A stretch of 32,676 nucleotides of DNA from an uncultured archaeon (lineage in GTDB: Archaea > Altiarchaeota > Altiarchaeia > IMC4 > QMZM01). Under the pieces are notes generated by a model that saw only the letters and a list, made by a program, of their open reading frames with translations, ran no database searches and was not told the DNA's origin. The translations under genes were made by a program, and so were the position numbers. Positions 30,307 to 32,676 of this stretch are shown piece by piece (within the stretch, counting starts at the first letter, position 1; every line of letters starts with the position of its first letter). Location of the stretch: positions 1 to 32,676 of the forward strand of contig CAZJVE010000011.1 in NCBI GenBank assembly GCA_964549685.1. Direction: 5' to 3'.

Positions 30307-32676
30307 CTAGGGATATGTCGCTTCTTTCATATCAATACCGCTTCCGGTAACAGAGTCGCTAATAGTAAGTATACACTTATCTCCACTACTCAATCCTGAG
30401 TGGCTGAATGAACCAGAGTAGTCAGAGATGGCACCTATAGATACTGTCCCAGGGGAGGGAGAGGAAGATACGGGTGGTGAGCAACCAACACTTATCTGAA
30501 CATCTCCGGCAGCGCCAGAATTGGATACCACATAGTTAAAGGTTGCAGAACCGGGCGATGTGACTGATGCCGTAAATGATGAGATTGCGAAGCTGGGTGA
30601 GGTGGGTATTGAGGTTGTGGTAGTGCTAGTAGTTGTGGTGGTGGTTGTGGTAGTAGGACACGTAACCTCAAGCACTTCGGTTCCTGAAAATATCAGTGTA
30701 TTCGCCAGCTGCAGGCCTATCAGGACTATAAGGACGCCGATTATTGCTGCTATTACTATGGCCTTTGCCTGGGTCCTCTTGACTATGTCATCACCGGAGC
30801 CGACCCATATCAGTCCGCCGACTATTATCACAAGGGTGCCCAGAAGCCCTGCCACGAACTGGAGTATCCTTATCAGGTTGCAGCCAATCGTCCAGATTGC
30901 ATCCTTGATGTCCGTGGGGACGGAACAGCCCGGGGTGAAATCGGTTATACCCGTACCGCTCACGAGGGTATTCACCAGCTGCAGGGCTATTATCACTATG
31001 GCCAGCCCGACCAGTGCATGAACCACAAAGTTCTTTGCACTGCTCTTGTCTTCTGGTGTATCTGTGCTCATCCATCTGACGCCCGCTAACGCTATAACCA
31101 GTCCCGATATAAGCGCGGCAGACGCCTGGAGTATCCTAACAAAGATGCATCCGAGGTATCTGGACTTGGTGTCTATATCTGCTCCAGTGGTTGCGCTCTG
31201 GCACTCGCTGAGAGGCGACAGGTCCTGGAGGTCGACGTCGCCGCCCATCAAAACATGCACGAGGTCAAGCGCGAGTATTATGACAACCAGGCCCAAGAGT
31301 GCGTATATTATCCGGGTCTTTGCCTCCACCCTGGATTCCACGTCATCGGCCGAGGCCCACTTAATGCCGGACAGCATTATCACAAGGCCGGCAACAATCA
31401 CGGCAATGAGCTGGATTATCCTGATTAGGATGCAGAATATGTACTGGAGCTGGTTGACAAAATATTCACCACCCAAATCGAAGAACGAGGGGCATGTGAG
31501 CTCCGAGAAGGGGAGGTAGAAATCACTGGGGAGGATGCTCCCTATCAGTGGAATGCCTGAAATAAGACCGGATACCCAGTTGACGAACCAGTTGATTACG
31601 GATATCATGTCAACGATGGAGAGAGCAAGCAGCGTAATCATAAAGCCGACAAGAACGTGGTATATCTTCCTCTTCGCCTCCGTCCTGGTCTCCGGGTCAT
31701 CTGTGCCTACCAGCCTCAGGCCGGTAATGGTAAGGTATAGTGCAGCCACTACCGCCGCCACTGCCTGCATTGACCTCACGAAGATGCAGAATATCACGTG
31801 GAGCTGCGCTATCAGGAGCCAAACAGAGCCGTGGAGTATTGTCTTTGCAACGCACGTCACGAGATAGGGCGTTCCGAATATGCCCGTGAGAAGGCTTCCG
31901 AGGCCTCCGAAGATATCCCCGCCGAAGATGCTGCCTATGCTTCCGAAGATGCTGCTAAAGTCAAAACCAAAGGCAACGGACGTCATCGCCCAGATAAGCT
32001 GCGATGAGACCATGACTATGACCAGCCCGACAAGGGCTTGAATGAACCACCTCTTCGCAATGTTCCTGTCCTCCGGGCTCTCGGAGGACATCCATTTGAT
32101 GCCGGCAAGGACTATCACCAGGGCCACCAGGGTTCCTGCCGGGAAGAGTATCGCAAGGAACAACACGCAGCCGAAGTCCTCTACCTGCGTCTTGATTGCA
32201 TCCGCTTTATTCTGGTCGATGCTGCAGCTGAAATCGCCCATCAGGGCATTGTCATCACCAAAGAAGATGGCCTTGACGAAATTCGTTGCAACGAAGACTA
32301 TTATGAGGCCCACTATCGCACCGTAAATCATGCTCTTGGCCTGCGCCCTCCCCTCCGGCGCATCCGAGGTCGACCACCTTACGCCCGCCAGTGCTATTAC
32401 CACGAGCGCTATTATCGCGGCAATCATTTGGATGATGGTGAATAGGATACATGCGACGTCTACTATATTGGCCATTATCTCATTGCCGCCACTGTAGGCC
32501 GCGCAGTCGAACTGGTTCCACGCAACTGTCTCAGAAATCATAAAATTCGCAAACTGAAGAGCAATTACTATTATGACCGCGGCAACCACCACGGATACAA
32601 TCATCTTCCTCGCCTTGTCCCTCTGCTCGGGGTTGTCTGTGCTCAGGTATCTCAGCCCGGCTATTGCCACCACCAG
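30307..32676 (-). CDS. 5'-truncated membrane protein with at least 7 tandem VirB2/TrbC-like (T4SS pilin-like) repeats, a poly-Thr linker and a C-terminal beta-rich domain
   Basis: The repeated unit C-I..IIQ.IA....LVI.LAG.RW.S.D.PE.R..AK..I..A.VGL.IV..A..LV...C is seen 7 times. The frame stays open at the window edge (CTG at 32676-32674). Confidence 0.8.
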   Translation of the reverse strand: MVVAIAGLRYLSTDNPEQRDKARKMIVSVVVAAVIIVIALQFANFMISETVAWNQFDCAAYSGGNEIMANIVDVACILFTIIQMIAAIIALVVIALAGVRWSTSDAPEGRAQAKSMIYGAIVGLIIVFVATNFVKAIFFGDDNALMGDFSCSIDQNKADAIKTQVEDFGCVLFLAILFPAGTLVALVIVLAGIKWMSSESPEDRNIAKRWFIQALVGLVIVMVSSQLIWAMTSVAFGFDFSSIFGSIGSIFGGDIFGGLGSLLTGIFGTPYLVTCVAKTILHGSVWLLIAQLHVIFCIFVRSMQAVAAVVAALYLTITGLRLVGTDDPETRTEAKRKIYHVLVGFMITLLALSIVDMISVINWFVNWVSGLISGIPLIGSILPSDFYLPFSELTCPSFFDLGGEYFVNQLQYIFCILIRIIQLIAVIVAGLVIMLSGIKWASADDVESRVEAKTRIIYALLGLVVIILALDLVHVLMGGDVDLQDLSPLSECQSATTGADIDTKSRYLGCIFVRILQASAALISGLVIALAGVRWMSTDTPEDKSSAKNFVVHALVGLAIVIIALQLVNTLVSGTGITDFTPGCSVPTDIKDAIWTIGCNLIRILQFVAGLLGTLVIIVGGLIWVGSGDDIVKRTQAKAIVIAAIIGVLIVLIGLQLANTLIFSGTEVLEVTCPTTTTTTTTTSTTTTSIPTSPSFAISSFTASVTSPGSATFNYVVSNSGAAGDVQISVGCSPPVSSSPSPGTVSIGAISDYSGSFSHSGLSSGDKCILTISDSVTGSGIDMKEATYP
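30611..30654 (-). repeat. ACN codon run encoding a poly-Thr/Ser linker (TTTTTTTTTSTTTTS)
   Basis: Low-complexity gtg/gta/gtt repeats on the plus strand. Confidence 0.85.

Follow-up and report, generated by a model that had tools for sequence, protein, structure and literature searches.

VirB2-type pilins are small single-unit subunits. In Patescibacteria, arrays of 2–11 separate VirB2-like genes with an average identity of 25% have been reported, alongside a type IV secretion system (T4SS) with the monoderm (MPF-FATA-like) PrgI/VirB4 arrangement (PMC12102498), and a six-gene pilin array has been reported to be essential in one cultured species (PMC12857230). In archaea, the Ced and Ted pilins have been described as chromosomal and ‘domesticated’, with a VirB2-like fold and a VirB4-like ATPase as partner (PMC9905601). 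Here we describe two adjacent genes, polypilin genes A and B, from an uncultured marine archaeon (Altiarchaeota), the nearest named relatives of which are metagenome-assembled genomes of Candidatus Altiarchaeota/Altiarchaeales. Gene B lies at the end of a 32,676-nucleotide stretch, termed here the window (positions 1–32676 of the 40,021-base scaffold C11, in a genome of 1.17 Mb, 27 contigs and 85% completeness), and gene A lies just beyond it. Both are shown below to be real, conserved genes, which fuse 11 (A) and 7 (B) VirB2-type pilin hairpins and thereby place at least 18 units in two neighbouring genes. Unit-by-unit matching shows that the 18 units are individually conserved and that their order is kept across relatives irrespective of where the polypeptides are cut; as judged from their sequences, the polypilins are an undescribed fused form of a known pilin family. 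Fused VirB2-like pilins were not described in the literature searched, although the supplementary pilin lists of PMC12102498, which lay outside that search, might hold multi-domain entries; no altiarchaeal T4SS or VirB4 was described there either. The joining of such pilins in one polypeptide is indeed unusual, as a preliminary description of the window had held.

The assignment to the pilin family is based on hidden Markov models (HMMs) from two collections. Gene B matches Pfam PF18895 (T4SS_pilin) with an E-value of 1.1e-42 (144.4 bits, 7 stretches; gathering cut-off 26.6), Pfam PF04956 (TrbC/VirB2) with 3.6e-17 (62.8 bits, 6 stretches; cut-off 27.9) and NCBIfam NF045849 (‘pilin-like conjugal transfer protein’) with 2.5e-26 (91.2 bits, 4 stretches; cut-off 40). 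For gene A the corresponding values are 3.1e-77 (255.1 bits, 11 stretches), 2.6e-39 (133.8 bits, 9 stretches) and 4e-43 (144.9 bits, 8 stretches). A six-frame scan of the genome with PF18895 gave 20 matches, 18 of them in genes A and B; contigs C8 and C1 account for the remaining two, each a pilin gene of one unit. Taken one at a time, 15 of the 18 units exceed the PF18895 cut-off and three gene B units score 21.9–25.9 bits; gene B alone thus has four of seven units past the cut-off, and one of its three lower-scoring units is truncated by the end of the window. An AlphaFold2 (AF2) model of one unit, made with a 36-sequence alignment, has a mean predicted local distance difference test score (pLDDT) of 86.1, with helices at residues 2–33 and 37–67 and a disordered tail. 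This hairpin and the two hydrophobic peaks seen in each unit agree with the helix-turn-helix of PF18895. Members of that family are also small single units with their own signal peptide; here the two polypeptides have 7 and 11 units, and the only signal peptide seen is the one that opens gene A. Because three independent HMMs agree and AF2 returns a hairpin for one unit, the identity of the units as VirB2/TrbC/T4SS_pilin-type hairpins is supported, which upholds the preliminary description on this point; its seven diverged helix-loop-helix units in gene B have likewise been recovered, with all seven loop cores present in the translation. The probability that the chains are instead an ordinary multi-pass transporter, or some other polytopic fold that resembles pilins, is negligible: they do contain many hydrophobic helices, and the top structural matches are generic helical hairpins, but no transporter family in Pfam or NCBIfam is significant for either gene, the three pilin models match unit by unit, and what repeats is a pair of helices around a charged turn of pilin type.

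Gene B, as far as it is present, encodes 789 residues on the minus strand with an open 5' end, and its seven loop cores are spaced 89–127 residues apart (two of the loops were missed by the loop pattern and were placed from the unit alignment). Its parts are as follows, the gap referred to being the scaffold gap at the end of the window.

30307..32676, minus strand: polypilin gene B, 3' part (789 codons plus stop), an open reading frame (ORF) with seven matches to PF18895, six to PF04956 and four to NF045849
32497..32676, minus strand: unit B1 (residues 1–60), helix 1 truncated by the gap, loop core RYLSTDNPEQRDKAR
32218..32469, minus strand: unit B2 (residues 70–153), with Cys76 and Cys151 as brackets; reciprocal best match of ortholog unit 2 (67%)
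31846..32187, minus strand: unit B3 (residues 164–277), with a Gly/Phe-rich insertion following helix 2; Cys170 and Cys275
31486..31806, minus strand: unit B4 (residues 291–397), with a long hydrophobic insertion past helix 2; Cys297 and Cys395
31195..31452, minus strand: unit B5 (residues 409–494); Cys415 and Cys492
30919..31167, minus strand: unit B6 (residues 504–586); Cys510 and Cys584
30652..30900, minus strand: unit B7 (residues 593–675); Cys599 and Cys673
30310..30651, minus strand: Thr-rich stalk, then a Ser/Gly-rich C-terminal domain of ~95 residues, ending in KEATYP

The stalk and the C-terminal domain, the latter giving no family match in Pfam or NCBIfam, are presumably extracellular.

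A 100-N scaffold gap (contig positions 32677–32776) begins exactly at the window end and cuts gene B. Gene A follows just past the gap on the same strand (contig C11 32813–36319, minus, 1168 aa, 11 units), with its stop codon 33 bases before the gap and, on a reading by eye rather than by a predictor, a typical signal peptide at its N-terminus. Residues 1–674 of gene B align at 64% identity with residues 185–839 of a 1057-aa ortholog in a congener, in which a signal peptide and a Cys-rich domain of ~130 residues precede seven units. From this alignment gene B has most likely lost ~184 N-terminal residues (signal peptide, Cys-rich domain and the start of unit 1) and most likely has seven units in total, with no further one hidden in the gap. 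The preliminary description, which expected the ORF to run on and perhaps to hold more copies, was therefore right in part: the ORF is cut by the gap, and 11 more units do exist, in the separate gene A. Contigs from four public DNA sequencing runs do not bridge the gap: on the gene B side they extend 212 bases past its edge, on the gene A side up to 724; a 30-base loose end of one contig, read by hand in the frame of gene B, extends helix 1 with nine of ten residues identical to the ortholog. A gap that sits inside gene B and that four runs leave unbridged would be in keeping with a mis-assembled or collapsed pilin gene array, or with decaying pseudogenes. Such an artefact is nevertheless very improbable, since units at ~31–36% identity differ too much for an assembler to collapse them, orthologs of identical unit order come from independent assemblies and sources (53–89% identity), neither gene has an internal stop, and the contigs of the other runs match the gap flanks at 99% or more.

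All units share one plan, in which two hydrophobic helices of ~30 residues flank a charged turn; a Cys stands before the first helix, which runs to G-x-(K/R)-W, and the second helix is followed by a short tail that closes with another Cys. The two Cys are the sole invariant columns in all 36 sequences aligned (17 units, the pilin of contig C8, 11 pilins that another Altiarchaeales genome encodes as single genes, and 7 database representatives with one unit each), and the charged turn motif is retained in 18 of 18 units. The mean identity among the 18 units is 31% in a multiple alignment (range 18–48%) and 36% in pairwise local alignments (maximum 52%); by these sequence measures the units are old paralogs rather than recent repeats. 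The linkers between the Cys of neighbouring units comprise 13–22 residues and vary in both length and sequence, with no motif common to them in the alignment of units. Lys and Arg make up 60 of 309 loop residues versus 16 of 471 linker residues. From this bias, together with the signal peptide of gene A and the Thr-rich sequence that follows the last units, we infer that the turns are cytoplasmic and that the linkers, the cysteines, the Thr-rich stalks and the end domains lie outside. A disulfide may then form either within a unit or between the two Cys that flank a linker; in single-unit pilins the only intramolecular partner of a Cys is at the opposite end of the same hairpin. An AF2 model of the whole of gene A, made with a 6-sequence alignment and used for its secondary structure only, contains 11 helix-turn-helix hairpins followed by a C-terminal domain of beta-strands.

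Relatives of the two genes were collected in two ways. A word-indexed search with gene A, covering proteins of 642–2044 residues, returned six proteins including gene A itself, and when 1.84 billion representatives were searched with a unit profile, 22,994 proteins came up at E ≤ 0.001; among the 150 best-scoring of these, 139 carry 2–17 stretches, a count that gives no frequency because the ranking favours multi-unit proteins. Units were counted with an HMM built from the units described here and were then matched one by one, with the following result.

Congener, three adjacent genes: 7, 4 and 7 units; 17 of 18 are reciprocal best matches in order, at 60–82% identity
P0004: 11 units; 11 of 11 matched in order, unit 4 being separated from unit 5 by a large beta-strand domain
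P0005: 10 units; 10 of 10 matched in order, without unit 5
P0012: 7 units; 7 of 7 matched to gene B
P0008, a single ORF of 1775 aa: 17 units; 9 reciprocal best matches, all ascending (A1, A4, A5, A8, A10, B2, B3, B4, B6)

The same series of units is thus cut 7/4/7 in the congener and 11/7 here, and it stands as 17 in one protein in P0008. One-to-one orthologs of units in the congener are 60–82% identical, as against a mean of ~36% and a maximum of 52% between paralogs; the fifth unit of the congener is a copy of its fourth. Gene A units 8–11 and the C-terminal domain correspond to a separate 543-aa gene of the congener, which has its own signal peptide (56% identity). The three genes of the congener stand beside ORFs of 296, 184 and 223 aa, and three ORFs beside gene B measure, in that order, 296, 188 and 223 aa, a correspondence of sizes only. 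A polypilin of the ex4484_96 metagenome-assembled genome proved on counting to have ten units, and remoter members of the family carry 5+10 and 5+11. Across the phylum, polypilin-like ORFs (gene A as query, E ≤ 1e-30) were found in at least 9 of 61 genomes, all in the archaeon's own family f1; this number is a lower bound, at most 11 candidates having been scored per genome. Genes A and B are the largest two-gene polypilin set found so far in the family. The conserved order speaks for non-redundant units more strongly than for one architecture or another.

Two of the relatives merit separate mention. In P0004, residues ~590–905 form three repeats of a beta-strand domain of ~95 residues between pilin units 4 and 5, so that the outside linkers evidently tolerate large insertions. 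P0031 (583 aa) is a polypilin without the Cys pair in which neighbouring units appear, by eye, to be near-identical; if that impression holds, some chains grow by recent internal duplication, unlike the diverged units described here.

Unfused counterparts exist within the same order. In family f6, consecutive single-unit pilin genes have been found, 11 in the genome G042 (95–137 aa) and 14 in G045, and in the G042 array every gene encodes a signal peptide of its own along with the Cys pair of the units. It is plausible that the polypilins originated by the fusion of such a single-gene array. A different arrangement is seen in genome G007, where a protein of 1159 aa carries one hairpin at its extreme end. 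In Patescibacteria there are fused chains without cysteines, for example a 641-aa Peregrinibacteria protein with seven stretches, from which it follows that the fusion of pilins has probably happened more than once.

These comparisons bear on whether the chains remain whole. One of the options raised in the preliminary description was a polyprotein, the linkers being cleaved to release single pilins and end domains that would act like the products of an array. Such processing would suit the extent of the unit, which equals a mature single pilin (the G042 pilins end 1–10 residues past the second Cys and start ~15–25 residues before the first), as well as the interchange of fused and split forms among close relatives and the fact that the same gene row encodes a secreted 871-aa protein bearing an HExxH motif. 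We nevertheless regard it as decidedly unlikely, and no evidence for such cleavage was found: the linkers of 13–22 residues have no motif in common, the 871-aa protein matches no peptidase family in Pfam, NCBIfam or the ESM Atlas and is absent from the congener's locus, and the independently fused Patescibacteria forms have quite different linkers.

The genome also encodes candidate partners for these pilins. On contig C8, a 326-aa PrgI-family (VirB3-like) protein is followed directly by a 764-aa VirB4-like ATPase. The ATPase matches P-loop_TraG (1e-26) and conju_CD1110 (2.8e-94, 316.9 bits; cut-off 325), as well as VirB4_plasma, TraC and VirB4_CagE, and its match to CedB is weak (2e-13, 49.9 bits; cut-off 700). 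The PrgI-like protein matches TrsD and the N-terminal part of the Mycoplasma VirB4 model. On these family matches, the predicted VirB3/VirB4 pair of this genome is the core of a T4SS-like machine and belongs to the conjugation type of monoderms (MPF-FATA-like). The preliminary description had looked to the region right of the window for such an apparatus, with VirB4 and VirB6 genes. That location turned out to be wrong, the minus strand past the gap holding instead the second polypilin gene (A), a 269-aa membrane protein and the 871-aa secreted protein; the VirB4-like ATPase and PrgI are present on contig C8, and VirB6/TrbL (PF04610) gave no match in this 85%-complete genome. A VirD4 coupling protein was not found in the 85%-complete genome either: the best match to its family (PF02534), at 18.3 bits, falls short of the cut-off and is in fact a HerA helicase. 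The search did not extend to relaxases.

Pilins and ATPase are distributed together across the phylum. PF18895 was found in 48 of 61 genomes, including 47 of 47 in families f1–f6 (own genome excluded) and none of 13 in families f7–f9; a VirB4-like protein was found in 45 of the 61, with 44 of 47 and none of 13 in the same two groups. The preliminary description had named a transporter fold without a co-occurring ATPase as the finding that would count against pilins, and neither half of it was encountered. A Pfam-confirmed gene order of pilin-PrgI-VirB4-Band7 is seen in G016 and of PrgI-VirB4-pilin-pilin in G007, and coordinates suggest the same pilin/PrgI/VirB4 neighbourhood in many more genomes. 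A minimal VirB3/VirB4-type system is accordingly near-universal in one order of free-living archaea, the Altiarchaeales, where pilins and the VirB3/VirB4 pair occur in about 45–48 of 48 genomes.

Several further features of these loci were noted. The PrgI-like and VirB4-like genes form a trio with the SPFH/Band-7 gene that comes after them (contig C8 13195–20121); this trio is kept in two genomes, the other being G016, and in the present genome it is followed by a protein that joins an Mrr-type nuclease domain to a permease-like C-terminus. In several genomes of family f6 (G051, G039, G042, G045, G032, G034, G046 and others) there is a single in-frame TAG or TAA within the VirB4-like match. 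A PMT_2-type glycosyltransferase gene lies directly 5' of the pilin gene in G016 (Pfam), and large membrane proteins similar to the PMT_2 type, as read by eye from their N-termini, precede the C8 pilin (contig C8 48473–50744) and the 11-gene array of G042; the presence of a PMT_2-type gene before pilin genes is a hint of pilin glycosylation.

Set against the described systems, the locus resembles each in part. Like the Patescibacteria arrays, it consists of diverged paralogs of the PF18895 family lying side by side (here 31–36% identical), with monoderm VirB4/PrgI partner machinery and no coupling protein match, relaxases being outside the search here. Unlike them, it belongs to an archaeal host, its units are joined (7 and 11 per gene, and 17 in a relative), and signal peptides occur only at chain starts. 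The Cys pair that is invariant in every unit here is missing from the CPR (candidate phyla radiation) polypilins that were examined; fused forms such as the 641-aa Peregrinibacteria protein exist in CPR too, and the passages of the Patescibacteria literature consulted do not mention them. With VirB2, TrbC and TraA the units share the PF04956 match, two hydrophobic helices joined by a short polar turn, a signal peptide at the chain start and a co-occurring VirB4-family ATPase; those proteins, however, are small single proteins of mobile elements, whereas here chains of 7–11 units stand beside a gene row conserved in a congener. The units also match the Mycoplasma pilin-like family of integrative conjugative elements (NF045849, Mbov_0395), and the PrgI-like and VirB4-like proteins match the element models TrsD and VirB4_plasma, but the members of the Mbov_0395 family are single-unit proteins from the integrative conjugative elements of wall-less bacteria. 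Finally, the locus is archaeal and chromosomal and has a VirB4-like ATPase, as do Ced and Ted; it differs from them in that its ATPase is weak on CedB and nearly at the cut-off of the Firmicutes-type conju_CD1110, and in that PF04610 gave no CedA/VirB6-like match. No link to CedA1 or TedC was obtained by a PDB profile search or by Foldseek, and the direct likeness to these two proteins drawn in the preliminary description has therefore not been borne out. New here are the orthology of units across cut points, the invariant Cys pair, the unfused arrays of a sister family and the order-wide link to VirB3/VirB4.

Our preferred reading, to which we give a probability of roughly one half, is that uncut chains would act as blocks of non-interchangeable subunits and would go into one mixed assembly, similar to a pilus or a stalk, that exposes the terminal domains. 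Sec would insert each chain as a membrane protein of 14 or 22 helices, and disulfides on the outside would staple each hairpin or tie neighbouring hairpins together. The chains would stay uncut, and the VirB3/VirB4-type machine would assemble them, with the single-unit pilins of the genome, into a mixed surface structure. The polypilins would then be the fused counterpart of the 11–14-gene pilin arrays of the sister family and of those in Patescibacteria. Fused chains argue against a view of pilin arrays as sets of ‘spare antigenic variants’; a defined mixed assembly fits better because the units are conserved singly and in order while the cut points move. In practical terms, one tagged polypilin gene would report on 7–11 subunits together.

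A more specific form of this reading is, in our judgement, unlikely. It would give each of the ~18 hairpins a fixed place in the order of a single lipid-bearing hetero-oligomer, tubular or stalk-like: a ‘pre-threaded’ pilus segment, built in a free-living archaeon by a minimal VirB3/VirB4 machine, in which peptide linkage rather than assembly kinetics would set the neighbours of each subunit. Altiarchaeota have two membranes, and a pre-threaded structure could bridge them. We know of no account of what the Patescibacteria pilin arrays build, and the pre-threaded form, if true, would explain it.

The chief rival is that the hairpins have been co-opted as two-helix modules of a membrane anchor or scaffold, in static polytopic envelope proteins that hold ectodomains of Cys-rich, Thr-rich or beta-strand type or organise the membrane independently of any pilus and of the VirB4-like ATPase. 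Ectodomains do terminate the chains (A and B each have one at the C-terminus, and the ortholog of B a Cys-rich one at the N-terminus), in P0004 a beta-strand domain, present three times, separates unit 4 from unit 5, the 1159-aa protein of G007 has a single terminal hairpin, the C1 pilin carries a Cys-rich N-domain, polypilin genes do not adjoin VirB4, and genus g6 has pilin matches without a VirB4 match. Such an anchor is, however, somewhat doubtful: one hairpin would suffice for it, as against 7–11 distinct ones each conserved one-to-one, all 18 units keep the charged turn motif of bona fide T4SS pilin families, and pilins are co-distributed with the VirB3/VirB4 pair, which single pilins adjoin.

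Several observations weigh against the preferred assembly of uncut chains. Here and in the relatives inspected, polypilin genes lie away from the VirB4 locus and the pilins next to VirB4 are single-unit, so that the polypilins may be accessories of the VirB4 machine or have no link to it. With the query used, VirB4 went unmatched in three genomes that do have pilin matches, namely G044 and the two of genus g6, one of the latter being 92% complete, and the common phyletic pattern may reflect a single gain because the genomes are kin. A conserved order of units would also be expected from plain descent alone, and no one-to-one orthology was resolved between the units and the G042 genes (26–36% identity, with the second-best score about equal to the best). 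On the structural side, the tertiary model of the whole of gene A is of low confidence (pLDDT 49.7, predicted template modelling score 0.32), and the packing of the hairpins is not readable from it. Foldseek against the PDB gave no match at E ≤ 0.001, the top matches listed being generic helical hairpins and no pilin, and a PDB sequence-profile search gave one match, a designed coiled coil, and no pilin chain. Lastly, the termini of VirB2 have been reported to lie ~34 Å apart in the T-pilus by cryo-EM (PMC9905601), and for this reason an intra-unit disulfide between N- and C-terminal Cys may misfit the canonical pilus lattice.

The gene row around gene A shows some further features. Upstream of it (C11 36436–39857, minus) lie the genes for the 871-aa secreted protein, which has Cys-rich N-terminal repeats in addition to the HExxH motif, and for the 269-aa membrane protein, which is single-pass; neither gave a usable match in Pfam, NCBIfam or the ESM Atlas. 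The C-terminal motif [KT]EAT[YG]P occurs genome-wide only in the 871-aa protein and polypilin B. Contig C1 (25678–35556) has a similar cluster, which encodes the 201-aa pilin with its Cys-rich N-domain, proteins of 304 aa (secreted) and 215 aa, and a secreted giant of 2569 aa without a Pfam match. A ‘GEDPELLR...’ stretch is common to the N-terminus of the 215-aa protein on C1 and the C-terminus of the 269-aa protein on C11.

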